From a virus, in IMG/VR virus record IMGVR_UViG_3300046789_000012: 47,532 bases of DNA. One strand, given 5' to 3'. Numbering within the stretch: position 1 is the stretch's first letter; the number at the start of each line of letters is the position of its first letter. Made by a program: the position numbers and the translations under genes. The notes beneath the pieces are model-generated. The model made no database searches. It was not told where the DNA came from and saw only the letters and a program-made list of their open reading frames with translations. Shown one piece after another: positions 5,794-24,271 of the stretch.

Positions 5794-5893
5794 GGCCACA
5801 CCTAAACCCGTCTCACGCACTCGCCAGCTAGTGAGCGAGCGGTCTAGCCCACTCGCTCACTCGCCAGCCTAGCATGCCGCATACACCGCCGCC

Positions 5894-5908
5894 GGCGATA
5901 TAGGCTGC
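5894..5908 (+). repeat. 15-nt direct repeat GGCGATATAGGCTGC, copy 2
   Basis: Identical to 4923..4937. Confidence 0.9.
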
Positions 5909-5926
5909 CGCATACAGGCTCGGCGC

Positions 5927-6349
5927 TCACTGCACTTTGCGGCCGCCAGTGCGCAGGTAAGCCTGCACTGCATACGCCAGCTCGGCGGCAAGTGTGCGGC
6001 TGTTCCGATCGGCGAGCGCCTGCAGCTCGTCGCGCTGCTCGTCGCTGACGAGCGACTCGACGCCGCCGAGGAAAGCCTCGACCGACCTGCCGATCGTCGC
6101 GCTCAACTCCTGTCGCTGTTCGAAGCCGTAGCGCCGCAGCCGCTCGCCGAGCTCGCGCGGCAGGTAAGCCGTAAACCTGTCGAGCTCGTCGCCGCGCGTG
6201 CGATGCACGAGGCCGCGCGCCGAGCCTTTCGAACCGCGGTGTGCGGGCGCAGGCTTCGCCGCCGCCGTGCCCGGTATCAGCGTCTGAACCGACCGACCAC
6301 CCTCGCCACGCCCGCGCAGGGTTGCCTTGACCGCCTTAGTCGCACTCAT
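5927..6349 (-). CDS. Ribbon-helix-helix protein, probable centromere-binding partner of ParA (ParG-like)
   Basis: 140 aa; ATGA overlap with the parA stop. DRFTAYLPRELGERLRRYGFEQRQELSATIGRSVEAFL has a strand-helix-helix pattern. The longer ORF-track start (6451) would overlap parA by about 100 nt. Confidence 0.6.
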   Translation of the reverse strand: MSATKAVKATLRGRGEGGRSVQTLIPGTAAAKPAPAHRGSKGSARGLVHRTRGDELDRFTAYLPRELGERLRRYGFEQRQELSATIGRSVEAFLGGVESLVSDEQRDELQALADRNSRTLAAELAYAVQAYLRTGGRKVQ

Positions 6350-7080
6350 GCCCGTTTCCTCCTCTGTGGTTTCTCGACTGCAATGCCGCCGCTCGAGGCG
6401 CCCTCGAGCTCGCTCGCCAGCTGCCGCACCTCGGCGGCTGCCAACCCCCACGCGCAGAACGTCGTCACGCCGAGGCCTGCGGCTGTCGCGCGGCCGAAGT
6501 CTTCACGGTTGCCGAGGCGCGCCTCGAGCAGCGGCAGCTGCGCGCCGCCGAGCGCCTCGTCGGCGTCGCGCGACGCCACAGACAGGCCTTTGACCTTGTT
6601 ACGCAAGACCGAGGCGACTAGGCGGCGCCTCGACGCGCGCTCGCGCTGCACGAGCTCGAGCATCGGCACGATCCCCCATAGGTCGGCAGCGTGCGGGCCC
6701 GTCGGCACGACGACTTGGTCGGCGATCGACACGGCCGCTAGCTGCACGTCTTCGTTGCTCGGCGGCGTGTCGAGCAGGCAGAGGTCGAAACCCTCGGCGA
6801 GCGTCGGCACGACTCGACGGATCAAGTCGGCTTTCTGCTCGTCGCTGGTGCGACGCTGGTCGGCGCTGTCGAGATGCACCACGTGCAGCCGCTCGTCGTC
6901 GGCGACATTCTCGCGCCTAACGTCGTACCAGATCCGCAGCGTGCCCTGCGGATCGGCATCGACGGCGAGCACGGACAGCCCTCGCCGATGCCACTCGACG
7001 GCGAGCGAGATCGCCGTTGTCGACTTGCCGACGCCGCCCTTAGAGCCGACGACGGCGAGCACCCATGCCTTATTCCGCAT
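6346..7080 (-). CDS. parA: ParA/Soj-family partition ATPase (small, no N-terminal HTH)
   Basis: 244 aa; deviant Walker A GSKGGVGKSTTA near the N-terminus, plus DADPQG and LLDTPP motifs. Confidence 0.9.
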   Translation of the reverse strand: MRNKAWVLAVVGSKGGVGKSTTAISLAVEWHRRGLSVLAVDADPQGTLRIWYDVRRENVADDERLHVVHLDSADQRRTSDEQKADLIRRVVPTLAEGFDLCLLDTPPSNEDVQLAAVSIADQVVVPTGPHAADLWGIVPMLELVQRERASRRRLVASVLRNKVKGLSVASRDADEALGGAQLPLLEARLGNREDFGRATAAGLGVTTFCAWGLAAAEVRQLASELEGASSGGIAVEKPQRRKRA

Positions 7081-7135
7081 ACATCCTCGGATTCTCCGTG
7101 ACCGCCTGACACGCGTCAGAGCGCTAGAGCCTACG

Positions 7136-7145
7136 CGCTATAGCG
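7136..7145. promoter_or_regulatory. Perfect palindrome CGCTATAGCG (site 1 of 4), upstream of parA
   Basis: The same 10-mer recurs at 12292, 12597 and 29080, always in non-coding DNA. It contains a TATAGC -10-like hexamer on both strands. Confidence 0.5.
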
Positions 7146-7299
7146 TCCAGACGTCAAGTGAGCGAGCGCGCGAGCGGTCTAGCGGTTGAGTGCTCTAGGG
7201 CACAAGAGCACCGGTGCACTAGGCAACCGGCAGCCTACACACGTTTGTGTTCATGCTAATGTGTTGCGCCGATCGAGCGGCGAGTGTAGAGTCGGATTC

Positions 7300-7563
7300 A
7301 TGACAACGAACGCCGCCGACTGGTCCGCCGTAAAGCACGAAATACTCGACACTCTGCGCGCGACCGAATGGCCGCACGGGACCGTTTGCACGCATCCCGA
7401 GGTGGTAATCGAGCGCTATCGGACGACGCGCCGACCGGCAGGGCGAGGCGCCGAGGTTGTCGACATCATCACCGCCGCCCTCGCAGCGCGCGGCTATGCA
7501 GTGTCCAAGTCGCACGGAACACGCGCCGACGGCTGCCGCTTCGTGCGGCTGCGAGCGCACTAA
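7300..7563 (+). CDS. Hypothetical protein (87 aa)
   Basis: First ATG of the ORF with coding-like composition (MTTNAADWSAVKHEILD...), followed by a perfect hairpin. Confidence 0.5.
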   Translation: MTTNAADWSAVKHEILDTLRATEWPHGTVCTHPEVVIERYRTTRRPAGRGAEVVDIITAALAARGYAVSKSHGTRADGCRFVRLRAH

Positions 7564-7569
7564 AGCTTT

Positions 7570-7600
7570 CAGGCCTCGGCGCTACCAACGCCGAGGCCTG
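7570..7600 (+). terminator. GC-rich hairpin (12-bp perfect stem, 7-nt loop) without a T tract
   Basis: caggcctcggcg-ctaccaa-cgccgaggcctg read directly. No U-run follows, so it may be an RNA stability or processing element rather than an intrinsic terminator. Confidence 0.3.
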
Positions 7601-7626
7601 ATCGAACACAGGAAGGCAAAGTCACC

Positions 7627-7818
7627 ATGTTCACTACGGAATCTATCACGCTAGGCCGCTGGGCCCTACTTGTCGGCGCGCTGCTCGCGAGCGCCGCCCT
7701 CGAGGCGCACGCGCCCGAGCTCGCCGAGGCAGGGGAGGGCGGCCGCATCGAGGCCGACCTCGTCGCCATCGAGGGCGAGCGGCAGGCCGCGCTCGAGCTC
7801 GACCGGCTCGCTCGCTAA
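7627..7818 (+). CDS. Small secreted or membrane-anchored protein (63 aa)
   Basis: AGGAAGG SD-like sequence 8 nt upstream. Hydrophobic segment LGRWALLVGALLASAALEA. Confidence 0.55.
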   Translation: MFTTESITLGRWALLVGALLASAALEAHAPELAEAGEGGRIEADLVAIEGERQAALELDRLAR

Positions 7819-7878
7819 CCCACTAGGCAGCCGCCGCCGAGCTGTCGGCGGCGGCTCGCCGCTAACGGACACACCACC

Positions 7879-8229
7879 ATGCCGAAACCGAAACGCAAAC
7901 CAGCCGACCGCATTCGCGCGCTGCTCGACGAGGGCGTCGCGCCTGACGAAGTGTGCCGAACGCTGCGCGTAACGCGCGCCGCCGTGCGCAGCGCCGACCA
8001 GCATCGGCAGCCCAAGGGCAGGCCCGTCGAGAAATGCTCGCGCCGCCTGACGCTCTACGTCGACGCCGAGACGCTCGATTGGCTGCGCGCCGAGGCCGAC
8101 CGCACGGGATACACGCCCGGCGAGCTCGTCGACGGTATGCGCCTCGCCATACAAGCCGCCGACCGCGGCGACGATCCCATTCTCGCAGCACACGTCACCA
8201 CCCACGCTACGAAGGACACAGCCTCATGA
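7879..8229 (+). CDS. DNA-binding protein (N-terminal HTH-like plus C-terminal RHH-like segment)
   Basis: 116 aa; RIRALLDEGVAPDEVCRTLRVTRAAV and LTLYVDAETLDWLRAEADRTGYTPGELV. Confidence 0.65.
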   Translation: MPKPKRKPADRIRALLDEGVAPDEVCRTLRVTRAAVRSADQHRQPKGRPVEKCSRRLTLYVDAETLDWLRAEADRTGYTPGELVDGMRLAIQAADRGDDPILAAHVTTHATKDTAS

Positions 8230-8594
8230 CCGACCACACGATCGCGCCGCTAGAATGCCCACACTGCGGAAAGCCGAACGTTCTGCCGCTGACACACACG
8301 CGCCTGCGCGAGCGCGTGCTCGAGGTCGCTGCCAAGATCGCGCCGACGCTGCCCGACGATCACGTCGTCGCCGCGATCGGCAGCGAGCAGGCCGCGCTGC
8401 GTGCCGACGCTGCCGCAGGCCGCAGCGCGCGTAACTACGTCGGCTGGCTGCTCGAGGCGCTCGACGGCATCTGCTACGACTGCTCGCCGACAACGGCCCG
8501 ACTCAAGTCGATCGAGGACTCGCTGCCGGCGCTCGCCGACGCTGCGCACGCCGAGCTCGCTCGGGCCCTGTCGAACCGGCCGTATCCGCGTTAG
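8226..8594 (+). CDS. Hypothetical protein with paired-Cys motifs (122 aa)
   Basis: ATGA overlap with the upstream gene; CPHCG ... CYDC. Confidence 0.6.
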   Translation: MTDHTIAPLECPHCGKPNVLPLTHTRLRERVLEVAAKIAPTLPDDHVVAAIGSEQAALRADAAAGRSARNYVGWLLEALDGICYDCSPTTARLKSIEDSLPALADAAHAELARALSNRPYPR

Positions 8595-8617
8595 GATGGC
8601 CCTGGTTCCGATATCTC

Positions 8618-8658
8618 GAGGGCCCGATCGCCGCCACGCACCGGCCGATCGGGCCCTC
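8618..8658. other. 13-bp perfect inverted repeat GAGGGCCCGATCG / CGATCGGGCCCTC with 15-nt spacer
   Basis: Read directly, 24 nt after the stop at 8594, in the gap between convergent operons. Confidence 0.7.
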
Positions 8659-8698
8659 TGCCTCTTCAACCGTTAGCGCACTCGTTCACTCGCACACG

Positions 8699-8741
8699 CG
8701 CTCGCTCGCGCGCGAGAGGGCTAGTGAGTGAGCGGTTTTTT
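8699..8741 (+). terminator. Candidate intrinsic terminator (9-bp stem with one G-U pair, then T6)
   Basis: cgctcgctc (8699..8707) pairs with gagtgagcg (8726..8734), followed by gTTTTTT (8736..8741). The T run overlaps the stop codon of the convergent minus-strand gene. Confidence 0.4.
8712..8735 (-). repeat. 24-nt repeat CCGCTCACTC(A/G)CTAGCCCTCTCGC, inverted copy
   Basis: The reverse complement of 8712..8735 matches 29168..29191 at 23 of 24 positions. Confidence 0.85.
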
Positions 8742-9027
8742 ACACTCGTTCCACGTCGACTAGAACGATCGACATCACGCAAAAGCCCTCGGGCACGCCG
8801 AACACATTCCCGCGCAGCACATACGTCACGAGTGCGCGCGCCTCGTCGCCGGTGTACGCCTGCGAGTCGGGCGACCACTCTCGCAGGCGTAGTCCGTCGC
8901 CGACCTGAAAGCCCCGATCGTCCCGCCGATACTCGAACCGCTTGAGCTCGCGCCGAATGTGCTCGAACGGTTCTGGCCAGCATCGCAGCTCGTGCAGCGT
9001 GCACGGCTTCGCTTTGTTCGCTGTCAC
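8740..9027 (-). CDS. ASCH-like / DUF3850-like small protein
   Basis: 95 aa; GTGA overlap with the recombinase stop. LHELRCWPEPFEHIRRELKRFEYRRDDRGFQVGDGLRLREW fits the remembered DUF3850 pattern. Confidence 0.65.
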   Translation of the reverse strand: MTANKAKPCTLHELRCWPEPFEHIRRELKRFEYRRDDRGFQVGDGLRLREWSPDSQAYTGDEARALVTYVLRGNVFGVPEGFCVMSIVLVDVERV

Positions 9028-9980
9028 AGGCCGATCCCTTTGCTCGCGTTGTGCTCGTCGAGCAGCCGAGCGTCGCGCACGTACCTGTCGACCATCTCGC
9101 GGCCGCGCCATCGCCCTTGCTGCATGATCGCCCTGTCTGTCTTGCCAGCTGCAGCCGCCGACGTCGCGAGGCCGGAGCGCAGCGAGTGTCCCGAGTAGCG
9201 AGCGGCGTCGAGGCCGACGCGCTCGACGCTGCGCTTCACGACCTCGGCGATCGCTGCGCCTCGCAGGCCTGCGTCGAGCACTCGACCGCCGCGCGACATG
9301 CGCCGCAGCAGACGGCCGCGCTTGAGCTTCGAGAGCACAAGCCACGCCTCGAGCGCCCGCACCGGGCACGTCTGCCGGTTGCGCCCTCGAGCGACGCCGA
9401 CGCGATGGCCTTTGCCTTGCTGGTCGGTCTTACTGCGACGGATCAGCACGACGAGGCCGCCCTTTGTACCCTCGACGTCGCGCACCTCGAGCGCTGCGAG
9501 CTCCGACCGGCGCAGCGCGCCGCTCATGCCGAGCGTCAAGATCACGCGATCACGCACGCCGATCGGCGAGTCGGGCAGGGCAGCGCAGACGCTTCGTAGC
9601 TCGGCGGCAGTGAGCGGCGCGACCTGCCGCTGCGGCTGACCGTGCGTGCGGCGCACGCCTTCCCACAGGCGCTTTATCCGTGGATCGCTCGTCGGCGTCG
9701 CGTGCGTGCTGTTCACGTGCACCCACGCGATCGCCGACAGCGCGACCGATAGCGTACTGATGCTGACCTGGTGCGCGCGCTCCGTCAGCCACAGCGCGAG
9801 CGTCTCGGCAGGGCAGGGCAGCGGCTCGAGCTCGCGCGCCTCGCACCACGCTTTGAAGAGTCGCCACTGCCGAGCGTACTCGGCGAGCGTCCGCTTCGAA
9901 CGCGAGGCCGCTTCGTACTGCCTCGCGCGCTGCGCGAACAGCGCGAGCTGTGCAGGATGGGCCCGTGTGATCGCGGTCAT
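9024..9980 (-). CDS. Cre-like tyrosine recombinase
   Basis: 318 aa; RVILTLGMSGALRRSELAAL (Arg I region), YSGHSLRSGLATSAA (H-x-x-R), IMQQGRWRGREMVDRYV (W ... Y nucleophile). Co-linear with remembered P1 Cre blocks. No lambda-Int-type arm-binding N-domain. Confidence 0.9.
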   Translation of the reverse strand: MTAITRAHPAQLALFAQRARQYEAASRSKRTLAEYARQWRLFKAWCEARELEPLPCPAETLALWLTERAHQVSISTLSVALSAIAWVHVNSTHATPTSDPRIKRLWEGVRRTHGQPQRQVAPLTAAELRSVCAALPDSPIGVRDRVILTLGMSGALRRSELAALEVRDVEGTKGGLVVLIRRSKTDQQGKGHRVGVARGRNRQTCPVRALEAWLVLSKLKRGRLLRRMSRGGRVLDAGLRGAAIAEVVKRSVERVGLDAARYSGHSLRSGLATSAAAAGKTDRAIMQQGRWRGREMVDRYVRDARLLDEHNASKGIGL

Positions 9981-10438
9981 ACGTCAACCCCTGGGTTATC
10001 TAGCAGGACTTCCCATTGTCGCCGGCAGTCATCGTCCGGCGAAAGCTGTCGGCGCATCACCATCTCAAGCAGCGCTTCTATGCGATGCACGGCGCGAATG
10101 TCGTCGCGTGCGTAAAAATCGATCGCAATCGGCGGCGACAGCAGCGAGCGCGCAGGTACAGCCTCGTCAGGCTCGAGCTCGACGCATGGATCGACCGCGA
10201 AGATCGCAAGCTCGTGACTGCAGTGGCCTACAGCTGCCGGCATGCCCTCGACGGCGCGAAGATGCACGAGGCTAAGCACCCACTGAGACCACACAGGATG
10301 TGCGAACGGGCAGCGCAGCAGCCACAAGCCGATCTGCGCTCGCGCCTCTGGTGGCATCTCGAGGCGCCATGCTTCCCATGCATGCCGCGGACTACGGACG
10401 GCAGCGGGCAAGCTGAACCCAAAATCACACGGCCTCAT
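9977..10438 (-). CDS. Hypothetical protein (153 aa), first gene of the recombinase operon
   Basis: ATGA overlap with the recombinase start. No domain recognised. Confidence 0.6.
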   Translation of the reverse strand: MRPCDFGFSLPAAVRSPRHAWEAWRLEMPPEARAQIGLWLLRCPFAHPVWSQWVLSLVHLRAVEGMPAAVGHCSHELAIFAVDPCVELEPDEAVPARSLLSPPIAIDFYARDDIRAVHRIEALLEMVMRRQLSPDDDCRRQWEVLLDNPGVDV

Positions 10439-10487
10439 GACGCCGATCCTAGCGATTACCGGCGCTAAATGAAACTAGCGCGGCCTA

Positions 10488-10496
10488 TGGTAGAAT
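10488..10496 (+). promoter_or_regulatory. Extended -10 promoter element TGgTAGAAT
   Basis: tatggTAGAATgggcggcATG: the hexamer lies 7 nt upstream of ATG 10504, which implies a leaderless or near-leaderless mRNA. Confidence 0.4.
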
Positions 10497-10503
10497 GGGC
10501 GGC

Positions 10504-10713
10504 ATGGCCAAGACTGACTATCAGCCGTCAGCGGGACCGCCGGGCCCCTGGTGCGCGCCGCACGACTCGTGCCCGCACTGCGGTCGCATCTGGTCGCCGA
10601 CCTTTCTCGCGAGCCCGGACTTCCGCGGCTCCGCTTGCGACGTCGGCGAATGCGTCTGCGGCGCCTGCGAGGTCGGCGACTACTGCGTAAGGCACGACCC
10701 GTCGCTCGAATAG
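10504..10713 (+). CDS. Small Cys-rich (zinc-binding-like) protein
   Basis: 69 aa (72 aa if ATG 10495 is used); CAPHDSCPHCG ... CDVGECVCGACEVGDYC. Confidence 0.5.
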   Translation: MAKTDYQPSAGPPGPWCAPHDSCPHCGRIWSPTFLASPDFRGSACDVGECVCGACEVGDYCVRHDPSLE

Positions 10714-10728
10714 GGTTAGGCTGCGCCA

Positions 10729-11121
10729 ATGCCCGACGACCTCGAGGAATCTTTCGGCTGCCGACTGCGCCGCCTGCGCCTGCTCGCCGGCCTCGACGCG
10801 AGCCTGCTCGCGCACGCCGTCGGCGTCGAGCTCGAAGTGTTGGAGACTTGGGAACGCGACGAGGCCGAGCCGATCGTGCGGCAAGTTCTAGCGCTCGCCG
10901 CCGCCCTGCGCTGCACGGCATTCGCGCTGCTCGTGCCGACCGAGCGGCCTCCGCACAACGCCGAGCTGCTCGAGTTTCTCGAGACCGACCTCGGGCAGGC
11001 GGCAGCGCGGCACGGCATCGTGCCCGCACTGCAGTCGCTGCAGACCGAGCAGCCGCCGACTGTTGGCCTATACACGCAGCTTACGCGCCTGCTGCTGGGT
11101 GGCGCAGCGTTCGACGCCTAA
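10729..11121 (+). CDS. XRE-family HTH regulator
   Basis: 130 aa; FGCRLRRLRLLAGLDASLLAHAVGVELEVLETWERDEAEP. Confidence 0.65.
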   Translation: MPDDLEESFGCRLRRLRLLAGLDASLLAHAVGVELEVLETWERDEAEPIVRQVLALAAALRCTAFALLVPTERPPHNAELLEFLETDLGQAAARHGIVPALQSLQTEQPPTVGLYTQLTRLLLGGAAFDA

Positions 11122-11134
11122 CTCGCGCGCGCCC

Positions 11135-11479
11135 TCAATCTCCTCTGCGCTCGCCCCTACGCCGCTCGAGCGCCTGCACGTCGCGCAGCGCCATGTCGCC
11201 GCACCACTTGTCTATGCCATCCGGCGCGACGCCTGCCGCATGCGCCTCGCCGAGCAGCTCGTCGGCGACCAGATCGCTCAGTAAGGCGCGCATCAAATCG
11301 CGCTCGGGCAGCGTCGTCACCATCTCGTAACCGTGCACGGTCAGGTCGCGCGAGTGCACGATCAGCGTAAACCCGACGTCTGCGAACGTCGCATCGCGGC
11401 TGATCAGCTCGCGCGCGAACGTGCTGATCGCATCCCGCAGCAGCTGCTGCCGAGTCCGGTGATCGCCCTGGTCGCTCAT
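11135..11479 (-). CDS. Hypothetical protein (114 aa)
   Basis: Coding-like composition; ATGA overlap with the upstream gene 11476..11763. Confidence 0.55.
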   Translation of the reverse strand: MSDQGDHRTRQQLLRDAISTFARELISRDATFADVGFTLIVHSRDLTVHGYEMVTTLPERDLMRALLSDLVADELLGEAHAAGVAPDGIDKWCGDMALRDVQALERRRGERRGD

Positions 11480-11763
11480 ACCGCGCCCTCGTCGCTCGGC
11501 TCAACCTCGGCGATCCCGAGCACTCTGCGCAGGTCGGCGGCTCTCACTTGCATCATTGCGACCGCGTCTGTCACTGCGCGGTAAACGTCATCGCCAAGCA
11601 GGCCGACCCGGTTGCGCGCGCAAGTCATCATGCGGAACGTCACGAGCTTCTCGAGCGTTGCGACATGCCGCTCGAGCTCGGCGACCCGCTCGCGCGCAAT
11701 GGCCTCGAACGTAGGCGGCTCGATCGGCACGACCTCGGCGACGACCTCTAACTCGTCAGGCAT
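11476..11763 (-). CDS. Hypothetical protein (95 aa)
   Basis: Helical, acidic N-terminus; translationally coupled to 11135..11479. Confidence 0.55.
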   Translation of the reverse strand: MPDELEVVAEVVPIEPPTFEAIARERVAELERHVATLEKLVTFRMMTCARNRVGLLGDDVYRAVTDAVAMMQVRAADLRRVLGIAEVEPSDEGAV

Positions 11764-11911
11764 AGGCGACAGCCTACAGGCCTACACCGGCGACGTACAG
11801 CGCCACGCACGCGCCCGCAGGACGCCCGCAGACAGACGAGGCAGGACGTCGGCGGCTCTGAACCTTTCCCGGCCCTCTCGCGCCAACGTCGCGCACGCGA
11901 TGGCGTCGCCG

Positions 11912-12268
11912 CTATAGCTTCGACGCGCTAGCGGCCGCCTGCCGCCGCTCTCGGCGCTCGCGATGCCAGCCGAGCCAAGCTGGGTCCAGCTGCCACACGC
12001 AGACAACGCGAACGCCATCGCCATCACGTCGACCGCGACTGCGAAAGTCTGGGAAGCGTTGAATCGCCCAACTTTCCGCCGCCCATTGGCCGGGAAAACA
12101 GGCCTCGTGTCGACCTTCGACCTCGACTCCGTCGGCGAACGCACGCAGGCCAAACATGTCCCGCACGACGCGCGCCCTCGAATACAGCACGAGCATCAGC
12201 CGCTCTGCTTCGACGGCTCGCCACTGGCGCACGAGCACCTCGACACTGTCGATTACGGGATACGACAT
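11912..12268 (-). CDS. Hypothetical protein (118 aa)
   Basis: Start taken at ATG 12268 (MSYPVIDSVE). The ORF-track start at 12403 would read through the palindromes and the TTGACA element. Confidence 0.5.
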   Translation of the reverse strand: MSYPVIDSVEVLVRQWRAVEAERLMLVLYSRARVVRDMFGLRAFADGVEVEGRHEACFPGQWAAESWAIQRFPDFRSRGRRDGDGVRVVCVWQLDPAWLGWHRERRERRQAAASASKL

Positions 12269-12291
12269 TCCCGAACGCCTACCACTGCCGG

Positions 12292-12311
12292 CGCTATAGC
12301 GTCTAGACGCT
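12292..12311. promoter_or_regulatory. Overlapping palindromes CGCTATAGCG (site 2 of 4) and AGCGTCTAGACGCT
   Basis: Read directly, 24 nt upstream of the minus-strand ATG at 12268. The 19-mer gcgctatagcgtc(t/c)agacg also occurs at 7135. Confidence 0.5.
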
Positions 12312-12332
12312 AGCTCTGCGCGTTGCTTTTTT

Positions 12333-12338
12333 CTTGAC
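12333..12338 (+). promoter_or_regulatory. TTGACA -35-like hexamer after a T6 run, pointing into the origin region
   Basis: gcttttttcTTGACAgg; no convincing -10 at 16-18 nt. A second candidate, TTGCGC-16-GAGAAT, lies at 12369..12396. Confidence 0.25.
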
Positions 12339-12430
12339 AGGTGTCCGGCCGACGGCTGTACGCTCGCGCTTGCGCGGTATCCAGAAACCGAGAGAATACG
12401 CATCTAGCTCTTAGACGCCGCATCAGAGCG

Positions 12431-12503
12431 AGATCCCGGAAATTCTCGATCCTTTCTGCAGATCCGCAGCTCAACAGAGCTGCGGAGCTCTGCAGAGCAA
12501 GAT
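12431..12503. repeat. GATC cluster (4 sites in 73 bp) in the locally AT-richest stretch, with an internal hairpin
   Basis: GATC at 12431, 12447, 12460 and 12500. ccgcagct-caacag-agctgcgg hairpin at 12463..12484. GATCTTAAG is also present at the second origin. Confidence 0.7.
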
Positions 12504-12527
12504 CTTAAGTGTTAAGCGCCGATACCC

Positions 12528-12584
12528 CCTGTCTGGAAGGGTCTTTGCCCTGTCTGGAAGGGTCCTCGGGTCTGTCTGGAAGGG
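12528..12584 (+). repeat. Three iterons CTGTCTGGAAGGGT (12528, 12549, 12571) at 21-22-bp phasing
   Basis: Three exact 14-nt copies read directly. The spacing is about two helical turns, as in plasmid iteron origins. Confidence 0.85.
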
Positions 12585-12596
12585 TGTCACCACACG

Positions 12597-12606
12597 GCGC
12601 TATAGC
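12597..12606. promoter_or_regulatory. Palindrome CGCTATAGCG (site 3 of 4), between the iterons and the DnaA box
   Basis: Exact 10-mer. Confidence 0.5.
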
Positions 12607-12615
12607 GTGGGTAAG

Positions 12616-12624
12616 CTGTGGATA
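12616..12624 (-). promoter_or_regulatory. Consensus DnaA box (TGTGGATAA, complement of TTATCCACA)
   Basis: Exact 9-mer. The 13-mer gctgtggataacc is repeated at 29133..29145. Confidence 0.7.
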
Positions 12625-12694
12625 ACCAACCAACAGGTAGGGAGTGCAGGCGCAGGCGTTTCGGCCGTCCGAGATCCGTCGGCGATCGCGTCGA

Positions 12695-13510
12695 TCAGCT
12701 CGACGACGAGACGACGTCGCCGGAAAAGCTGACGGGCAGCGCGCCGCTGCTCTGCAGCTCGGCGACTGCCGACTTCACGCGCCGCCGCACTTGGTCGCGC
12801 GGCTGTCCAGGCGCAACGCGCAGCCGAATCGCTTCGAGCGTCACAGAGGGCGCGGCTGCGAGGCACAGCTGCAGCCACTGCGCGAGCGGCCGATTGCCGA
12901 TCGTGTGCCGCTTCGACTCGGCGACGCTGACCGTCCCGAGCGCCATCATGTCGAGCATGACGTCGTTTACCCACAGCGTGACAGTCGAGTCGACCGCCGA
13001 GGCTCCGAGCAACACGCCGCCCAACGTCGTACGGCGACGCCCCTCGCGAAACCACACAGTAGTTGCAGTGAGGTCTAGCAAGAGCGACCAAAGCCCGTCC
13101 AAGTGCAGCGCGCCGCCCTTGCGACGCAAGCGCCGGTTGACCTCGTCAAGGCTAACCGTCACTCGCGCATCGGGCCCGCTGTCGCTCAGATAGCCGAGTG
13201 CGACCATCAACACGTCTGCATGCGCCTGCGTCAACACGCGCCCGTGCAGCTGATAAACGCGCTCTGCTCCATCCACGTCGACCGACCGCTCGCGCGCACG
13301 AGCTGTGCCGACGTGCGACGCAGTGAACACGTTTGCGCGAATCAGCTCGAGCGGCATCTGCAGGGTACCCGATCGGCAGCGTGGCACGCGATCGAGCGGC
13401 GCGCGAGTGAGTGCGAGTGCGCTTTCCGTAAGAGACTTGAGCTTATCGCCGGGATCTGCTTTATTCGTCATCGAATCACTGCGCTGTCTGGCAAAGGCAA
13501 GCCGATTCAT
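12695..13510 (-). CDS. Plasmid-type replication initiator (TrfA/RepA-like)
   Basis: 271 aa. The blocks LELIRANVFTAS, HGRVLTQAHADVLMVALGYL and LHLDGLWSLLLDLTATTVWF are co-linear with remembered TrfA-type initiator blocks. The gene abuts the iterons and DnaA box. Confidence 0.65.
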   Translation of the reverse strand: MNRLAFARQRSDSMTNKADPGDKLKSLTESALALTRAPLDRVPRCRSGTLQMPLELIRANVFTASHVGTARARERSVDVDGAERVYQLHGRVLTQAHADVLMVALGYLSDSGPDARVTVSLDEVNRRLRRKGGALHLDGLWSLLLDLTATTVWFREGRRRTTLGGVLLGASAVDSTVTLWVNDVMLDMMALGTVSVAESKRHTIGNRPLAQWLQLCLAAAPSVTLEAIRLRVAPGQPRDQVRRRVKSAVAELQSSGALPVSFSGDVVSSSS

Positions 13511-13618
13511 GACGCCTCGCTGCTCTAACAGTGGGGCGTCTCGCTATGGCGATCAGGCCATAACGTTGCAACTAGAGCGCGCCGAGCACCTCGGGCGCAA
13601 CAAAAATGCAAGCCGACC

Positions 13619-14326
13619 TCACACTTTACGCGCGGCAACTCGACGGCCCTGCGCGTTTCGGCGAGGTCGGCGAGGTGCGCTCGGCGCGACGCTGCGATCG
13701 GCTTCGCTCACTGCGCGCAGGTAACCGGCGACGTCAAAGCGCGTGAAGCTGACGGCCCACACCCACGGGTTACGCTCCCATTGCTCGGGCGCTTCGTGCG
13801 CTGCGTTCCATGCCTTCGCGAACGCCGCTCGGCGAGCAGGGCACTCGGCGATGCACGAGCTGTATTCCGTGTCGTGCGCAGGGCAGCTGACGCCCTCCGC
13901 GGCGTAGTCGCGCGCGCAAGCATCCTGCAGCCGCTGGCAGCGTACGTCGTAGACACGCAGCCACAGGCGCGAGGCCTTCCGCGGCAGCAGCAGCGGCGAC
14001 AGCCACTGCCGGCCGATCACGACCTCGGCTGCCGCGTCCGCTTCGTAAACGATGCGACGCTGCGCTCGAGCGCCCTCGACCTGCCATCGCTCGCGCACCC
14101 ATAGCCAGTCGTCGACGGCGCCGAACGGGCAGCCGAGCAGCACAGGCCGCGCGCCCTCGCGCCCGCACACTGCGCGCAAGTCGCCGAGTCCGTCGCGCAC
14201 CCAACCCTCGACGACGGCGTCGACAGGCGCTCGCACGACGCGCCGCAGTTGCCATTGCTCGAGCTGTGCGACTCGCCGGGCCTGCGCCCTCGACAACACG
14301 ACCGACCTGCACGCGCGCGACGACAC
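13619..14326 (-). CDS. ASCH-like prophage protein
   Basis: 235 aa. WVRERW ... YEAD ... LPRKASRLWLRVYDVRCQRLQD ... AEG resembles a widespread prophage family with a W-x-P-x-x-M-P-R-W-A-S-R ... RLQDI pattern. Memory-based. Confidence 0.6.
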   Translation of the reverse strand: MSSRACRSVVLSRAQARRVAQLEQWQLRRVVRAPVDAVVEGWVRDGLGDLRAVCGREGARPVLLGCPFGAVDDWLWVRERWQVEGARAQRRIVYEADAAAEVVIGRQWLSPLLLPRKASRLWLRVYDVRCQRLQDACARDYAAEGVSCPAHDTEYSSCIAECPARRAAFAKAWNAAHEAPEQWERNPWVWAVSFTRFDVAGYLRAVSEADRSVAPSAPRRPRRNAQGRRVAARKV

Positions 14327-14567
14327 GCGCCGACACTACCCTCGAGCTGTCCAGCACACTAGCTCGCTCGAGCGCTAGCGCGCGAGATAGCTAGCACACG
14401 CTCGAGCCTAGGCGCTAGTGTGCGCAACTCTGCGACTTTGCTTACACTTAGCCGCAACTAGTAGACCCCCACAATTCTGTAAGTCTTAGCTGAAACGCGT
14501 TCTCACTGATGCGAAGTCTATGCGAGTGTGAATCACTCGCACTCGCAGGAGTGCGGATAGGGGTGGC

Positions 14568-15122
14568 ATGCAAGGTCGCGACGACTCAAACGACCCGCTA
14601 ACTATCGAGACTGCAGAGGCTCTCGATCTGCTGCGTGAAACCGCAGCTGACCTCTGCAGGCCAACAGGCGACGAGCCGTCGCTGCGCCTGCTCGCTCTAG
14701 CGCAAGCGATCGGCGTGCCCGGCGCCCTCTGGTCGCACGAGGTCGCCGACTGGCCAGCCGAGCGCCTCGCCGGCGCCATCGCCGTCTATCTCCAAGAAGT
14801 TTACGAATGGCCTTACTCGCGCGCCGCCCTCGAGCGCGCGGCGATGCAGGCTAGCGGCTATCCCGAGCCGACACGTCGACCCGCGCTCAGGCTGGTTTGC
14901 GGCGGCGGCGAGTCGCAGCGCGCCCGGCGTCGCGAAGCTTATCGGCTGTCAATCGGCCTCCGTGAGCTTCGACATGCGTACGCGCATCAATCAGGCGCTG
15001 CGCTGTCGTTTGACGAGCACCGCTGCCGGCATGTGGTGCTTTCGTGGTGGAGCTCAGTCGAGATGGCGCACGACTATCAGGCGCGGTTAGCGACGTATTG
15101 GGCCTTTCTTCGCAGTTCGTGA
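14568..15122 (+). CDS. Hypothetical protein (184 aa)
   Basis: SD-like aggggtgg upstream. Third-position G+C about 70 percent in its last 240 nt, higher than the opposing frame there. Confidence 0.5.
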   Translation: MQGRDDSNDPLTIETAEALDLLRETAADLCRPTGDEPSLRLLALAQAIGVPGALWSHEVADWPAERLAGAIAVYLQEVYEWPYSRAALERAAMQASGYPEPTRRPALRLVCGGGESQRARRREAYRLSIGLRELRHAYAHQSGAALSFDEHRCRHVVLSWWSSVEMAHDYQARLATYWAFLRSS

Positions 15123-15552
15123 CGTACTCCGTCAGCCACTCGAGCGTTGCAGGCTTCTGTCGACCGCGTATCGCGCGCTCGACCGACTCGATCAGCGTCT
15201 GACTCGCCTCGCGATCGGCCAAGAACGCCCGCACCTCGGCGACGCCGAGCACTGTCGGCGCTTCGAGCTCGGCGAGCGCAGCCGCGCGACCCTCGGTGCC
15301 GAATAGTAAAAGCTCAATGTCCGCATCGAGCAGCAGCGACGCTCGAACGAACAGCGGGATCGTTGGCATCGACCGCTCACGATCCCAATCGTCGAGCGTC
15401 GAGCCTGACACGCCGAGCAGCGCCGCAAAGCGTATGCGCGACAGGCCCTTAGCTGCGCGCAGCGACCATAGTCGCCGCTGCACACTCGTTTCCGCGTAGG
15501 GACTGACGCCCGACTCGGGCGCTGGCTTCATCGGGACCTTGCGATAGCTCAT
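14887..15552 (-). CDS. CI-like repressor (XRE HTH N-domain, low-complexity tail)
   Basis: 221 aa; LWSLRAAKGLSRIRFAALLGVSGSTLDDWDRERSMPT. Divergent from a Cro-like gene. By hand count, third-position G+C is about 76 percent for 15125..15552 and only about 54 percent for 14887..15124. Confidence 0.7.
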   Translation of the reverse strand: MSYRKVPMKPAPESGVSPYAETSVQRRLWSLRAAKGLSRIRFAALLGVSGSTLDDWDRERSMPTIPLFVRASLLLDADIELLLFGTEGRAAALAELEAPTVLGVAEVRAFLADREASQTLIESVERAIRGRQKPATLEWLTEYVTNCEERPNTSLTAPDSRAPSRLSSTTKAPHAGSGARQTTAQRLIDARTHVEAHGGRLTADKLRDAGRAATRRRRKPA

Positions 15553-15660
15553 GCCTCGGGACCTCGGTAGCGTGTCCAGGCTATAGCGCCAACCCTATAC
15601 CGTCCGGCACGGTTTTTCTATGACGCAATTTCTCTCATACCTCGGCGCCTAAGTGTCGCA

Positions 15661-15680
15661 TGTGCTCTGATGTGCGCTGA
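15661..15680 (+). repeat. Tandem decamers TGTGCTCTGA / TGTGCGCTGA in the CI/Cro intergenic region
   Basis: Read directly. A third GTGCTGA lies at 15692. These are candidate operator half-sites. Confidence 0.4.
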
Positions 15681-15719
15681 CAGCCTGCGCAGTGCTGAAG
15701 CTTGCCCACATAGGCAGTA

Positions 15720-15729
15720 GCCTATATCG
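15720..15729 (+). promoter_or_regulatory. GCCTATATCG element (-10-like TATATC) 9 nt upstream of the Cro-like ATG
   Basis: No SD lies between it and ATG 15738, suggesting a leaderless transcript. Related CTATAGCG (15581) and CCTATACCG (15593) lie nearer the CI-like gene. Confidence 0.4.
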
Positions 15730-15737
15730 TCCCGTCC

Positions 15738-16010
15738 ATGAACCTGCGGGCGTGGGTAAAACAGGAAGGCACAGGCGCCATAACGCGCCTGCAGTATCGA
15801 TCAGGACTCAGCTATACGGCCGTTCACCGCGCCGTCAGCGGAAAGTCGCGACCGACGTACGAGAGCGCTAACGCGCTCGCTGCGGCGACCGACGGCGCAG
15901 TCACTGTCGACGAGATATTTAGGAGCGCGCGCAGGGTGAAGCGAAAGGCGCCTCGAGCTCGAGCAGCGCGCCGCCGCGCGCAGAGACTCGCCGCAGTCGT
16001 CGCCGCCTGA
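15738..16010 (+). CDS. Cro/YdaS-like small HTH regulator
   Basis: 90 aa; GAITRLQYRSGLSYTAVHRAVSG ... ATDGAVTVDEI, with a basic tail. First gene of the rightward early operon. Confidence 0.7.
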   Translation: MNLRAWVKQEGTGAITRLQYRSGLSYTAVHRAVSGKSRPTYESANALAAATDGAVTVDEIFRSARRVKRKAPRARAARRRAQRLAAVVAA

Positions 16011-16081
16011 AACCCGCGGCCGCAGCAGCGCACGCCCATTCGCGCGCCGCTGCGCCGCCGACAACGTCGTGCAGGAGGCCC

Positions 16082-17071
16082 ATGGGTACGCCGACACCTC
16101 GCCGCAGTCAACGACGCTCGATCAAGCTGCCGGACCTCTATTGGTCCGCCGACTCGCCGCTCGACGGCGTCGCTCGCGTTGTCTGGACTCAGTGCTTGTT
16201 TCTGGCACGCCCGCAGCGTGACAGTCACGCGGACAGTCACGCGCCGCCGCAGCGTGACCGTCACGCCTTAGAGCGCGACAGTCACGCGCTCGAGCGCTGG
16301 CCAGCAGCGCCGCTCGTCGACGAGAGCCTGCGCTCGCTCACGCTCGCCGACATCGCGCGCGCAGTGCAGCTCGACAGGCACCTCGTCACGCGTGCGATGC
16401 AGCAGCTCGAGCGCCTCGGCGAGGTCGCGCGAAAGCCCGACGGAACGTGGGTAGTCCTGCGCTACGGCCTGACGCAGGAGAGGCCAGACGCCGAGCGCAA
16501 GCGACGCCAGCGGGCCCGTAAAAAGCGTGACAGTCACGCGGACAGTCACGCCGATTTACCCCGTGACAGTCACGCCGCCGAGCGGGACAGTCACGCGAGT
16601 TTTCCCGCGCGCGCGCTCTTAAGATCTGAGAGATCAGAAGATCTAACAGATCTTAATACCACTACCTCACCTCTTAACTCTGACCGCGTGCACGCGCGCG
16701 AGCCTGCAGTCGAGGCGCAGCGCTGGCTAAACGAGATTCTGACAACCGCGGCTGCGACGTTCGCGCCGCCGGCGCTCGGCACCAAATGGGAGCGGCATTA
16801 TCGCTGGATAGGGCAGCGCCCGCAGCGCGAGCTCGAGCAGGTCGGCGCGCTGCTGTGCGACGCGCTGCGCAGCCGCGCCCTGCGGGCCCGGTACCTCACG
16901 CCGCAGCACCTTATGTCCTACTGGCCGCAATACGCCGCCGGCGTGCTGCCGAACGCGCCTCGCCTCGCCGCGGTCGCAGCAGTCACGCCTGCCGAGCTCG
17001 AGCAGACGGCGCTCGAGCTCGAGGCCGAGGCCGACAACAACCCGGCCTGGCTTCAAGAGGCCGCGCCATGA
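16082..17071 (+). CDS. Replication initiator (lambda O-like role) with winged-helix domain and intragenic origin
   Basis: 329 aa; AGGAGG just upstream. LTLADIARAVQLDRHLVTRAMQQLERLGEVARKPDGTWVV is wHTH-like. The gene contains 8 iterons and an AT-rich GATC island and is followed by a helicase-loader gene. Confidence 0.7.
   Translation: MGTPTPRRSQRRSIKLPDLYWSADSPLDGVARVVWTQCLFLARPQRDSHADSHAPPQRDRHALERDSHALERWPAAPLVDESLRSLTLADIARAVQLDRHLVTRAMQQLERLGEVARKPDGTWVVLRYGLTQERPDAERKRRQRARKKRDSHADSHADLPRDSHAAERDSHASFPARALLRSERSEDLTDLNTTTSPLNSDRVHAREPAVEAQRWLNEILTTAAATFAPPALGTKWERHYRWIGQRPQRELEQVGALLCDALRSRALRARYLTPQHLMSYWPQYAAGVLPNAPRLAAVAAVTPAELEQTALELEAEADNNPAWLQEAAP
16220..16287 (+). repeat. Iteron cluster A: 4 x GACAGTCACGC (16220, 16232, 16256 with one mismatch, 16277)
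   Basis: Read directly. The core cgtgacAgtcacg is dyad-symmetric. Translated in frame as RDSHA-type peptides. Confidence 0.85.
16529..16596 (+). repeat. Iteron cluster B: 4 x GACAGTCACGC (16529, 16541, 16564, 16586)
   Basis: Same internal spacing pattern (12 / 23 / 22 nt) as cluster A; starts exactly 309 nt (103 codons) after it. Confidence 0.85.
16617..16660. repeat. AT-rich island with 4 GATC sites in 30 bp (candidate DNA-unwinding element)
   Basis: cttaAGATCTgagAGATCAgaAGATCTaacAGATCTtaatacc, with GATC at 16623, 16632, 16640 and 16649. Strikingly AT-rich for this genome. Confidence 0.75.
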
Positions 17072-17721
17072 CACACGGTATGGCGCGCATTCAGGACCTG
17101 CTAAAGCGCCTGCAGCAGCAGGTCACAAGCACCGAACACGCAGCCGTGCTCGAGCACGACGCCGACCGCGCACGGCAGCAGGCTCGGCGCGACGCCCTGC
17201 TCGCGCTGCCGACGCCGCTCGACGACGAGATGCTGCGCGCCATCGAGCACGACACGCTCGAGCAGACTGTCGCGCTCGTCGCTGTGCGGCGCTTTCTCGC
17301 GCTGCGTAGCTCGCGCACGATCCTCGTGCTGCACGGCGCTACAGGCACGGGCAAGAGCGTTGCCGCGGCCGACGCTGCAGCGCGCCGAGCGCATGCGCGC
17401 TGGGCCTATCCGCGCGACCTCGTCGAGGCCTATCACAGCCGGTATTCCGAGGCGCTCGTGCGGCGGCACGCGCTCGAGCAGTGCCCGCTGCTCGTGATCG
17501 ACAGCCTCGGCATCGAGCAGGCCGACACGACGATCATGCTCGACGCCCTGGTCGGACTGCTGCCCGTTCGCGTGCGACGCCGAACCATCATCACCACACC
17601 GCTATCGCAAGCCGCGTTCCTGCGTCGCTACGCGTTCGCGCCGCTGCTGAGTCTGCTCGCGGCCTCGGCGTTCCACGTCTCGCTAAAGGCGCTGCCAACC
17701 AAAGGACCGGACCAGCCGTGA
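17068..17721 (+). CDS. DnaC/IstB-like AAA+ helicase loader
   Basis: 217 aa; ATGA overlap with the initiator gene. Walker A LHGATGTGKS and Walker B LLVIDSLG. Confidence 0.8.
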   Translation: MTHGMARIQDLLKRLQQQVTSTEHAAVLEHDADRARQQARRDALLALPTPLDDEMLRAIEHDTLEQTVALVAVRRFLALRSSRTILVLHGATGTGKSVAAADAAARRAHARWAYPRDLVEAYHSRYSEALVRRHALEQCPLLVIDSLGIEQADTTIMLDALVGLLPVRVRRRTIITTPLSQAAFLRRYAFAPLLSLLAASAFHVSLKALPTKGPDQP

Positions 17722-20045: not shown

Positions 20046-20387
20046 ATGCACGCCACGAAGCCGATCCCCGCCACACCGACACACTGCCGCCGCTGCAGCG
20101 CCGAGCTGCCGCTGCTGCGTCGGTATGGGGGATTGTGCAGCGCGTGCATCGTGACGCACGCGCCGCCGAGGCTCGAGGACCCGACCCGGCGCAAATGGGT
20201 GATCATCGATCGGCGCACGGTCAAGCGACCTAACGGCGAGACCGACACGCGCCTGCGCGTCAAGTGTGCGTGCGGCTACGTCCGGACAATGGCCATCGCG
20301 GAATGGCGTAACAGCCGCTCGCTGCAGTGCAACCGATGCAGGATGCGCGACGAGCATCGGCTGCGGAAAGGCGCCGATGCCTGGTAA
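20046..20387 (+). CDS. Zinc-ribbon-like protein (113 aa)
   Basis: CRRC ... CSAC ... CAC ... CNRC. No H-N-H signature seen. Confidence 0.55.
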   Translation: MHATKPIPATPTHCRRCSAELPLLRRYGGLCSACIVTHAPPRLEDPTRRKWVIIDRRTVKRPNGETDTRLRVKCACGYVRTMAIAEWRNSRSLQCNRCRMRDEHRLRKGADAW

Positions 20388-20931
20388 GCCCACGAAGAAG
20401 AAGAAGGCCGCGAAGAAGAAGGCCGCACCGGTTCCCGGACACTCGCGCGCGCGTAGGGCCGACAATGACGTCTGGAAACCTCGCGCCGACGTCGCTGCCC
20501 TCGGCGGCAGGCCGACGCTCTACAGCGACGCCCTCGGCGACCGCATCTGCATGTGGATCGCCGCAGGCATGCCGATCGCTGCGTCGTGCGCGCACGAGGG
20601 CATAGGCCGCGCGACGTTCTACGACTGGCGCTCGCGAGGCGCCCTCGGCGTCGAGCCTTTCGCGACGTTCCTGCGCGCAGTCGAGGTCGCGCTCGCGCGC
20701 TCCGAGGTCGCCGTGATGCAGAGTGTCGTCGCCGCCGCGCGCGAGGACTGGAAGGCCGGCGCATGGTGGCTAGAGCGCAGATTCCCGAAACGCTACGGAC
20801 AGCGGCAGCAGCTCAAGATCGAGAAAGCGCCCGCGGAAATGACCGACGCCGAGCTCGACGCGGCGATCGCTCAACACGGCTACGTGCGTGCAGCCTCACT
20901 CACCGACGACGAACCGGAGCCGAAGTCATGA
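20377..20931 (+). CDS. terS: Terminase small subunit (HTH type)
   Basis: 184 aa; Lys-rich N-terminus. GRPTLYSDALGDRICMWIAAGMPIAASCAHEGIGRATFYDWRS and WKAGAWWLERRFPKRYG match the remembered small-terminase pattern. Lies upstream of terL. Confidence 0.7.
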   Translation: MPGKPTKKKKAAKKKAAPVPGHSRARRADNDVWKPRADVAALGGRPTLYSDALGDRICMWIAAGMPIAASCAHEGIGRATFYDWRSRGALGVEPFATFLRAVEVALARSEVAVMQSVVAAAREDWKAGAWWLERRFPKRYGQRQQLKIEKAPAEMTDAELDAAIAQHGYVRAASLTDDEPEPKS

Positions 20932-24011: not shown

Positions 24012-24031
24012 CCACTGGACAGGCGCCCGGC

Positions 24032-24268: not shown

Positions 24269-24271
24269 CCC

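Follow-up and report, generated by a model that had tools for sequence, protein, structure and literature searches.

In bacteriophage P1, the plasmid prophage relies on the replicon RepA/oriR with its iterons and DnaA boxes, on the ParAB/parS partition system and on Cre/loxP, and a separate lytic replicon, RepL/oriL, completes a genome of about 94 kb. In Cluster A mycobacteriophages, e.g. RedRock, parABS is found in place of an integrase. More generally, what is known of phage-plasmids comes largely from enterobacteria and a small number of other cultured hosts, and other groups, namely N15, SSU5 and pMT1-like, were reportedly catalogued by Pfeifer and co-workers in 2021. The present analysis deals with a viral stretch of 47,532 nucleotides (nt), IMG/VR record IMGVR_UViG_3300046789_000012, hereafter the window, and with the plasmid-style functions it carries, that is an initiator gene (rep) with its origin, a partition (par) operon and a Cre-like recombinase gene, in addition to a lambda-style replicon. 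As it combines a complete virion module, a Rep with a cognate origin and a partition system, the element has the make-up of a phage-plasmid; this category being well established, it represents an undescribed lineage within it and no new kind of system. The best explanation, with good probability, is a temperate phage with a contractile tail that persists in the lysogen as a circular low-copy plasmid instead of integrating, P1-like logic being here built from unrelated gene families.

The likeness to P1 lies in the layout, since both are myoviruses that combine a plasmid replicon of the iteron and DnaA-box kind with a ParA-type operon and have a further replicon next to the immunity and early region, and in the recombinase, whose only solved sequence relatives are Cre, with the catalytic residues kept, including Trp315. 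Of all these parts, only the recombinase is related in sequence to its P1 counterpart. Megablast of positions 5000-21000 against deposited phages and plasmids returned no match, the capsid protein is a DUF2184 member and the genome spans only 47 kb. Besides, Rep is assigned here to the TrfA clan and is encoded upstream of three iterons, ParA is of the small type Ib and not of the large type Ia with an N-terminal helix-turn-helix (HTH) domain, and the lytic replicon is of a lambda-O-plus-DnaC type and not of the RepL type, while the recombinase is optional in the clade and no lox site was found. With no megablast match and a best capsid-protein identity of 31% to any deposited phage, the element does not fall within Punavirus (P1-like), and the initial annotation was right in holding that the gene families (TrfA-clan Rep, type Ib-like partition, DUF2184/DUF3383 virion) depart from the P1 layout. 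Since no protelomerase is present, it is not a linear plasmid of the N15 type either, and the virion families of the Cluster A, N15, SSU5 and pMT1-like groups differ from those of this phage.

Comparison of the two termini of the window shows that bases 1..127 are exactly those of 47406..47532, so that the assembly is circular and its unit measures 47,405 bp, and the 47.4-kb circle proposed at the outset is borne out by this 127-bp overlap. The same phage was assembled at 47,504, 47,276, 47,258 and 47,011 bp in other samples, with differing start points. Guanine plus cytosine (GC) content is uniform at about 66% genome-wide and so is codon usage, the genes having been called with a codon log-odds model trained on long open reading frames (ORFs). 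The structural part of this genome is as follows.

20377..43546, plus strand: virion module, from family matches.

Along this arc of 20.4-43.5 kb, packaging, capsid and tail genes are recognised and the contractile-tail set is complete. It includes a small terminase (Sf6 type) and a large terminase (Terminase_6C), then a PF06381 portal (the DUF1073 of the initial annotation), a MuF-like protein, DUF2213, a cement protein and a PF09950 major capsid protein (DUF2184) for the head, as well as a DUF3383 sheath, a tube, a Dit-like protein, Baseplate_J and fibre genes for the tail; the DUF1073/DUF2184/DUF3383-type virion is thereby confirmed. The lineage as a whole appears undescribed, as had been suspected: in addition to the empty megablast and the 31% ceiling for the capsid protein, IMG/VR held one partial relative only, and a literature search for phage-plasmids with TrfA retrieved no description of such a lineage. 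A 53.8-kb Rhodoplanes plasmid encoding a 29%-identical capsid protein was considered as a relative and rejected as an unrelated, siphovirus-type element.

The plasmid-type replicon occupies the minus strand next to the immunity region and comprises the following features.

13619..14326, minus strand: conserved phrog_874 gene (phrog_874, E 2.5e-32), directly upstream of rep on the same strand.
12695..13510, minus strand: divergent TrfA-family double winged-helix initiator (Rep), 271 amino acids, assigned from transitive profile homology and predicted fold.
12617-12625, minus strand: perfect DnaA box TTATCCACA, with a degenerate second box TTACCCACG at 12606-12614, two bases away.
12527..12586: three direct iterons CCCTGTCTGGAAGGGT(C), starting at 12527, 12548 and 12570.
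12380..12520: A+T-richer spacer, candidate DNA-unwinding region, GC 0.52-0.55 vs 0.66 genome-wide, with a hairpin at 12456-12495.

Regarding the initiator, for which an alternative start at 13357 would give a protein of 220 amino acids, direct scans against Pfam, PHROGs and NCBIfam gave no match, neither TrfA, RPA nor Rep3_N appearing at E<=0.01, and the six nearest homologues scanned singly (P0006-P0011) gave no TrfA match either; having no direct family match, Rep shows a TrfA likeness that is invisible to a simple scan. Close homologues are rare, 5.8 billion proteins yielding only five clusters, whose contigs all measure 32-47.5 kb. A profile built from these five retrieved 122 proteins, and out of 68 relatives found in this way, 44 match TrfA (Pfam), 18 RPA, six Rep3_N and six RepC; among the hits, P0012, P0014 and P0015 (E 1e-12 to 1e-15) score 42-66 bits on PF07042, for a gathering cut-off of 22. 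Using the homologue alignment, the AlphaFold2 (AF2) model of Rep reached a predicted local distance difference test score (pLDDT) of 87.8 and a predicted template modelling score (pTM) of 0.84, and the top 25 PDB matches of this model in Foldseek are all RctB domains 2-3 or RepE54 (template modelling score, TM, ~0.4-0.6). A PDB sequence search with the 68-sequence profile yielded chance chaperonin hits only. On profile and model grounds, Rep is thus placed in the TrfA clan, though it fails the Pfam TrfA model directly, and the profile and fold check of the two key families agrees with their initial assignment, ParA through its ParA_partition match (see below) and Rep by transitive profile homology.

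After the rep stop codon come the DnaA boxes, the three iterons and then the A+T-richer spacer with its hairpin. The iterons, two exact 17-mers and one at 82%, are spaced 21 and 22 bp start to start. A TTGACA element at 12334 points towards the spacer, and the arrangement TTGACA...TGTACGCT is conserved in relatives; a sigma-70 consensus scan of 11800-16200 called no promoter, at the 12334 element or elsewhere. The spacer region is 69% identical to that of the relative L043 over 565 nt. This organization resembles RK2/RP4 TrfA-oriV and the wider TrfA/RPA/Rep_3 clan (RepE of F, pi of R6K, RctB of Vibrio chromosome 2) by profile-level homology to TrfA-passing proteins, by a predicted double winged-helix fold that matches RepE54 and RctB domains 2-3, and by direct iterons at a two-helical-turn period beside DnaA boxes and an A+T-richer stretch. 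It differs in that the window Rep matches none of the TrfA, RPA and Rep_3 models, that the iterons are only three and that the replicon resides in a phage genome. The TrfA-like Rep, the iterons and the DnaA box of the initial annotation are therefore retained, through profile, fold and repeats, unlike the cluster of GATC sites at 12431-12503 that it listed with them: with 6.7 GATC per kb genome-wide, at least four of them within 80 nt turned up somewhere in 98% of random placements, i.e. no more than chance.

Of note, the phrog_874 protein is Cys/His-rich, with remote homologues encoded on longer contigs, of 54-109 kb (L066, L073, L077). A second perfect DnaA box is found at 29131..29143, in the middle of the virion module, where a 13-mer, GCTGTGGATAACC, is shared with the origin (12615-12627); it lies about 25 nt upstream of a promoter-like element of the opposite-strand gene 28647..29075(-), which matched no known family, and is conserved in L040 and not in L038.

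Relatives were gathered by exact-protein look-ups together with one JGI metagenome scan, which delivered about nine lineages of 45-47 kb, plus partial contigs, from independent metagenomes. Their common gene order can be read outwards from the divergent regulatory pair: on one side, the Cro-like gene is followed by the O-like and the DnaC-like genes; on the other side, the CI-like gene is followed by the phrog_874 gene, rep, the origin and a variable region of 3-7 kb, and then by parA, its partner gene, an HTH gene and the fibre genes. This order was recovered in independent JGI, ENA and Logan assemblies.

Within this conserved backbone, rep and its iterons behave as an exchangeable cassette. 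Wherever the origin region is complete, rep is followed by exactly three direct repeats with a period of 21-22 bp (in L010 the contig breaks off within the second one), and in seven of nine lineages a perfect DnaA box separates the rep stop from the iterons. The repeat itself reads ACCCTTCCAGACAG in the window, GACCGTTCCAGACATGG in L003, GGCCCCCTCCAAGCACACACGC in L056 and CGAGGGACGGACGACGAACG in L058/L063, so that the iterons fall into at least four clearly separate families that include variants, each family tracking its Rep allele. Across all lineages, the phrog_874 gene is 45-98% identical and the neighbouring Rep 28-82%; in six of them (L003, L007, L056, L058, L061, L063) the former is 84-98% identical and the latter 28-65%, and the figures for L003 vs L058 are 98% and 31%, respectively. 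As the flanking gene is near-identical where Rep and iterons differ, cassette replacement is indicated, and, as far as sequence comparison can tell, this replacement follows the pattern expected from incompatibility-driven diversification, that is selection for new specificities. By contrast, the iteron of the O-type origin (see below) is identical across lineages, whereas the plasmid-type iterons change with Rep. That these phages form an undescribed clade of 45-47-kb myovirus phage-plasmids from environmental metagenomes, with a GC content of about 66%, in which an invariant lytic O-type origin is combined with a repeatedly replaced TrfA-type cassette, with resolvase and toxin genes as interchangeable add-ons, is a proposal that could at present fall either way.

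The partition locus, on the far side of the variable region, reads as follows.

6346..7080, minus strand: small type Ib-like ParA ATPase, 244 amino acids, from NCBIfam and PHROG profile matches.
5927..6349, minus strand: ParA partner, candidate centromere-binding protein, 140 amino acids, from position, conservation and a sub-threshold RHH_5 match.
5821..5926: intergenic region 3' of the par operon, candidate centromere or recombination site, from repeats and a palindrome.
7081..7299: par operon promoter/operator region, with GCTATAGC (7137) and the palindrome GTGCACCGGTGC (7205-7220).

ParA matches ParA_partition of NCBIfam (NF041546, E 2e-44), with which it aligns end to end over the 203 positions of the model, as well as phrog_164 (E 9e-39) and also AAA_31, CbiA and MipZ. 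It exhibits a deviant Walker A motif, GSKGGVGKST, in which KGGVGKS starts at residue 14, and lacks an N-terminal HTH domain; among solved sequences, those of Soj, McdA and ParF come nearest. The partner gene overlaps the parA stop by 4 nt, and its product is kept at 38-40% identity in all relatives, every time downstream of ParA. It combines a disordered basic N-terminus, an invariant motif KGSARGLVHR and C-terminal segments resembling a ribbon-helix-helix (RHH) fold, the RHH_5 match being below threshold (E 2e-4 to 4e-4, 20-21 bits vs a cut-off of 26) and restricted to the window protein, while a single-sequence AF2 prediction gave an unusable model (pLDDT 54.6). Where the initial annotation named a ParA with an RHH partner, the former is thus firmly supported and the latter was overstated.

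Short repeats surround the operon. Two copies of TGCCGCATACA (5875 and 5906) lie in 5821..5926, together with a 12-6-12 palindrome, GTGAGCGAGCGG-tctagc-CCACTCGCTCAC, at 5831-5860 beside par, and a third repeat copy, CCGCATACA, overlaps the parA start codon at 7074-7082. The window thus has three copies of TGTATGCGG around the par operon, in place of which relatives carry GCACCGG repeats on both sides of the operon, with two to three copies (three in L001) preceding parA and others following the partner gene. Compared with type Ib par systems (TP228 ParF/ParG, pSM19035 delta/omega), the locus shares a small Walker-type ParA without N-terminal DNA-binding domain, a small downstream partner with disordered basic N-terminus and RHH-like segments, and short repeats flanking the operon; it differs by the below-threshold RHH match, by a centromere that is a candidate only and by the divergence of the repeats, TGTATGCGG here vs GCACCGG in relatives.

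Besides the plasmid-type replicon, a lambda-style replicon is found beside a CI/Cro-like pair.

14887..15552, minus strand: CI-like HTH repressor candidate (HTH_31, HTH_3 and Phage_CI_repr, E 1e-4 to 4e-3; PHROG repressors, E 1e-4).
15738..16010, plus strand: Cro-like small regulator opening the rightward early operon (match to the transcriptional repressor family phrog_35, E 3e-4).
16082..17071, plus strand: winged-helix O-like initiator carrying its own origin (phrog_391, O-like, E 1.7e-4; MarR-type winged helix-turn-helix, wHTH, at residues 84-121).
17080..17721, plus strand: DnaC/IstB-type AAA+ helicase loader (phrog_50, DnaC-like, E 2.7e-10).

The O-like initiator has no match to Pfam Phage_rep_O and no PDB sequence match, and its weak phrog_391 match was obtained for the window protein only, among five clade members. 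Inside its gene, GACAGTCACG occurs in seven exact copies (about eight with one variant), clustered at 16215-16299 and 16524-16608, with several copies forming the palindrome GTGACAGTCAC. After the second cluster comes an AT-rich tract (16610-16680, GC 0.46-0.54) with four GATC sites, conserved in relatives. The identical 10-mer iteron, the two-cluster layout and the AT-rich tract are kept even where the O-like protein is only 41% identical; moreover, the iterons use the rare codon AGT within RDSHA repeats, in a genome with about 0.83 GC at third codon positions (GC3), which argues that the constraint acts on the DNA. At the protein level, the intragenic iterons coincide with RDSHA/DSHG peptide repeats flanking the winged-helix segment. 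As for the loader, it also matches NCBIfam IstB (E 2e-7) and DnaI (E 1.7e-4); it was rejected as a homologue of lambda P, for which there was no match, in favour of these DnaC-like/IstB/DnaI AAA+ families.

With lambda O and ori-lambda, this replicon shares an origin inside the initiator gene, made of repeats and then an AT-rich tract, and the succession of a Cro-like gene, an O-like gene directly downstream and a helicase-loader gene. It differs by the weak O match, by iterons arranged in two clusters that flank the wHTH segment and encode RDSHA repeats, and by a loader that is a DnaC/IstB AAA+ ATPase and not lambda P. From the lambda O/P-like pair with intragenic origin of the initial annotation, the iterons and AT-rich tract were thus recovered, O homology proved weak and lambda P was not upheld; likewise, its CI/Cro-type switch is favoured by position, as the CI-like and Cro-like genes are divergent neighbours in the window and all relatives, with weak family matches. 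The extent of the CI-like protein is uncertain, 221 amino acids in the window vs 130-157 in most relatives. Nearby, 14327..14567, which separates the phrog_874-rep operon from an ORF on the opposite strand, 14568..15122(+), is the lowest-GC stretch of the genome (0.49 in 120 nt) and is CTAG-rich; this ORF overlaps the 3' end of the CI-like ORF, and the low-GC stretch probably holds divergent promoters.

Between rep and parA, the variable region of the window houses the recombinase.

9024..9980, minus strand: Cre-like tyrosine recombinase, 318 amino acids (PF00589, E 2e-12).

It belongs to a three-gene operon with 9977..10438(-) and the DUF3850 gene 8740..9027(-) (DUF3850, E 6e-25). At E<=1e-3, the PDB sequence matches consist of 17 P1 Cre/Tre chains only (E 1.6e-9), the alignment being near full-length (residues 31-303 vs Cre 44-327) and Cre R173, E176, K201, H289, R292, W315 and Y324 being all identical. 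A length of 318 amino acids leaves no room for an arm-binding domain; the Cre-like recombinase devoid of it, as first described, is well founded on the Cre-only matches, the catalytic residues and this size. A hidden Markov model (HMM) built from 120 family members detects the recombinase in the window lineage, L043/L044/L061, L056, L063 and, on the opposite strand, L058. It has no match in L001, L003/L004 and L007+L038, where the precomputed Pfam lists, with the DNA covered, contain no integrase, serine recombinase or transposase. Because these sister lineages lack it, the recombinase is an optional accessory gene. In Cluster A, a partition system likewise substitutes for integration in temperate phages, and here too only some clade members have a recombinase; the difference is that every member of the present clade has par and rep, with the recombinase as an extra and not as a substitute occupying the same locus.

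The variable region of the recombinase-less lineages has a ParE toxin gene with a small adjacent gene, and Uma2 or T5orf172 genes. Its cargo differs from lineage to lineage, examples being the ParE toxin gene, endonuclease genes of the Uma2 family, a T5orf172/MUG113 gene and one that is QueC-like (e.g. L003 12167-12717; L007 12722-14165; L043 6910-7584 and 9812-10495), and in the window it holds two HTH genes, DUF3850 and several unknown genes.

Some repeats were considered as possible sites for the recombinase. The inverted repeat at 8618..8658, with perfect 13-nt arms, GAGGGCCCGATCG ... CGATCGGGCCCTC, and a 15-nt spacer, lies between convergent genes, and its variant in L046 has one compensatory and one disruptive change; it was set aside as a recombination site, being better read as what is probably a bidirectional terminator. 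The motif AGTGAGYGAGCG was also rejected as enriched, with 38 occurrences at <=2 mismatches for 33 expected. CTAG-containing motifs, GTGAGCGAGCGG / CCGCTCACTC, recur intergenically at 5831..5860, 7157..7185, 8680..8735 and 29169..29200, with no statistical enrichment at <=2 mismatches, and the one directly 3' of the recombinase operon still adjoins the recombinase gene in the DUF3850-less variants L046 and L051.

Taken as a mechanism, a lysogen would have its CI-like repressor silencing the rightward early operon, from the Cro-like gene to the O-like initiator, the DnaC-like loader and the late genes. The TrfA-family Rep would bind the three iterons just downstream of its own gene and, with host DnaA at the DnaA box, open the A+T-richer spacer for theta replication, with copy number set by iteron handcuffing. 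The type Ib ParA and its partner would segregate the copies through the short repeats flanking the par operon, and the Cre-like recombinase, where present, would most likely serve multimer resolution or circularisation of incoming DNA, as Cre does for P1. Upon induction, the O-like initiator would bind the palindromic iterons within its own gene, the adjacent AT-rich tract would melt and the host helicase would be recruited through the DnaC-like loader for lytic replication. The plasmid lysogeny put forward by the initial annotation is supported by backbone conservation, the optional recombinase, the covariation of Rep and iterons and the lack of host flanks; the plasmid state itself, the assignment of each replicon to a state and the role of the recombinase are nonetheless what we infer.

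Several points weigh against this plasmid prophage. Free virions or replicating phage DNA would equally give flank-free circular contigs of about 47 kb. A Rep-alignment scan of 185,579 species-representative genomes found no relative, and hence no isolate showing the element as a plasmid, and a terminase scan of the same genomes gave distant relatives only (best 43% identity). The CI and Cro assignments rest on weak matches, and the RHH fold of the ParA partner, like the centromere, is still a sequence-based candidate. For L007, the best covered of the lineages read as recombinase-less, coverage is 41.7 of 46.45 kb (about 90%), the remainder being attributed by synteny to portal/MuF and fibre genes. 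Adjoining the recombinase gene, no lox-like site (11-nt arms, 6-8-nt spacer) was found. Finally, with a tyrosine recombinase present and family members lying in prophage-like regions of bacterial chromosomes, integration is possible for this genome.

This last point opens on the alternative that survives best, unlikely as it is, namely an integrative temperate phage in which the Cre-like enzyme would be the integrase and the par and TrfA-like modules only transient or auxiliary, for pre-integration replication or DNA positioning. The enzyme is indeed called 'integrase' in source annotations, large chromosomal contigs carry homologues with 42-50% identity to it, of which one (Collibacillus) falls within a prophage-like region, and simple recombinases without arm-binding domain can serve as integrases; yet its nearest solved relative is Cre, from a plasmid prophage, it sits in the variable accessory region, on the opposite strand in L058, and sister lineages with the same CI/Cro, rep and par backbone do without it. 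Neither do the contigs speak for integration: the exact Rep was found on 13 and the exact recombinase on 18, and these 31 look-ups gave phage neighbours only, on contigs not exceeding 47.5 kb. Tape-measure homologues at >=33% identity are on contigs of up to 51.9 kb, and none of the contigs bearing these phage genes shows host flanks or chromosomal DNA. A tRNA scan and Rfam search of the window revealed no tRNA gene and no Rfam match that could mark attP, nor was any attP-like feature found there.

Slightly less probable again would be a phage with no stable plasmid state, virulent or pseudolysogenic, whose two initiators would both be lytic, used at early and late stages or in different hosts, and whose ParA would position DNA or oppose competing elements. 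Contigs that are all genome-sized and host-DNA-free, as virion DNA would be, a weak repressor assignment and the lack of any known lysogen are in line with it. Yet an iteron initiator together with a host DnaA box and a ParA operon, joined in relatives by a ParE toxin gene, is the hallmark of a vertically inherited replicon, and the divergent CI/Cro-like pair is kept in all lineages. Rep-iteron swaps between near-identical backbones fit incompatibility selection of co-resident plasmids and, since the O-like origin keeps an identical iteron across lineages, they are hard to explain for a purely lytic origin. As for the possibility that an unrelated phage and a small plasmid (rep, par, recombinase) were fused, either as an assembly artefact or through recent co-integration, suggested by the grouping of plasmid-like genes in one 8-kb arc and by the highly variable rep-parA interval, it is very improbable in view of the same gene order in independent JGI, ENA and Logan assemblies and about nine diverged lineages, of uniform GC content and codon usage, and of the constant position of rep between the immunity and accessory regions and of par beside the tail-fibre genes.

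Outside the replication and partition loci, one feature stands out in size.

~44935..47532 continuing 128..3073, crossing the window junction: giant tail-fibre gene, predicted by gene callers at 1,847 amino acids.

Across near-identical genomes of this phage, its predicted product ranges from 1,764 to 2,111 amino acids, the range in relatives being 1,801 to 2,037, as if host range were set by a protein of variable length. The ORFs scanned included no recognisable endolysin or holin, the scan leaving aside some small ORFs at 18.5-20.4 kb and 43.5-44.9 kb and minus-strand ORFs at 45.9-47.4 kb. An 8-bp palindrome, GCTATAGC, occurs in six copies for 0.42 expected (7137, 11911, 12293, 12599, 15580, 29081). 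Five of them are intergenic and promoter-like, upstream of parA, flanking the origin and upstream of the CI-like gene and of 28647..29075(-), and the copy at 11911 coincides with the 3' end of the gene 11912..12268(-). At 29081, the palindrome forms TTGACG-N17-CTATAGC on the minus strand, an arrangement that L038 and L040 share; the palindrome may serve as an operator or as a promoter element of the -10 type.

If the proposed clade holds, incompatibility-group diversification would be occurring inside a phage lineage. The clade would extend the P1-style solution, i.e. a plasmid replicon, a partition system, a Cre-type recombinase and a lytic replicon, to an uncultured high-GC environmental lineage. 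With at least four Rep-iteron specificities on near-identical backbones, it would provide a natural experiment on initiator-iteron recognition and on the way incompatibility shapes phage genomes, and comparing lineages with and without the recombinase would test cleanly how far a Cre-like enzyme adds to the stability of a plasmid prophage.

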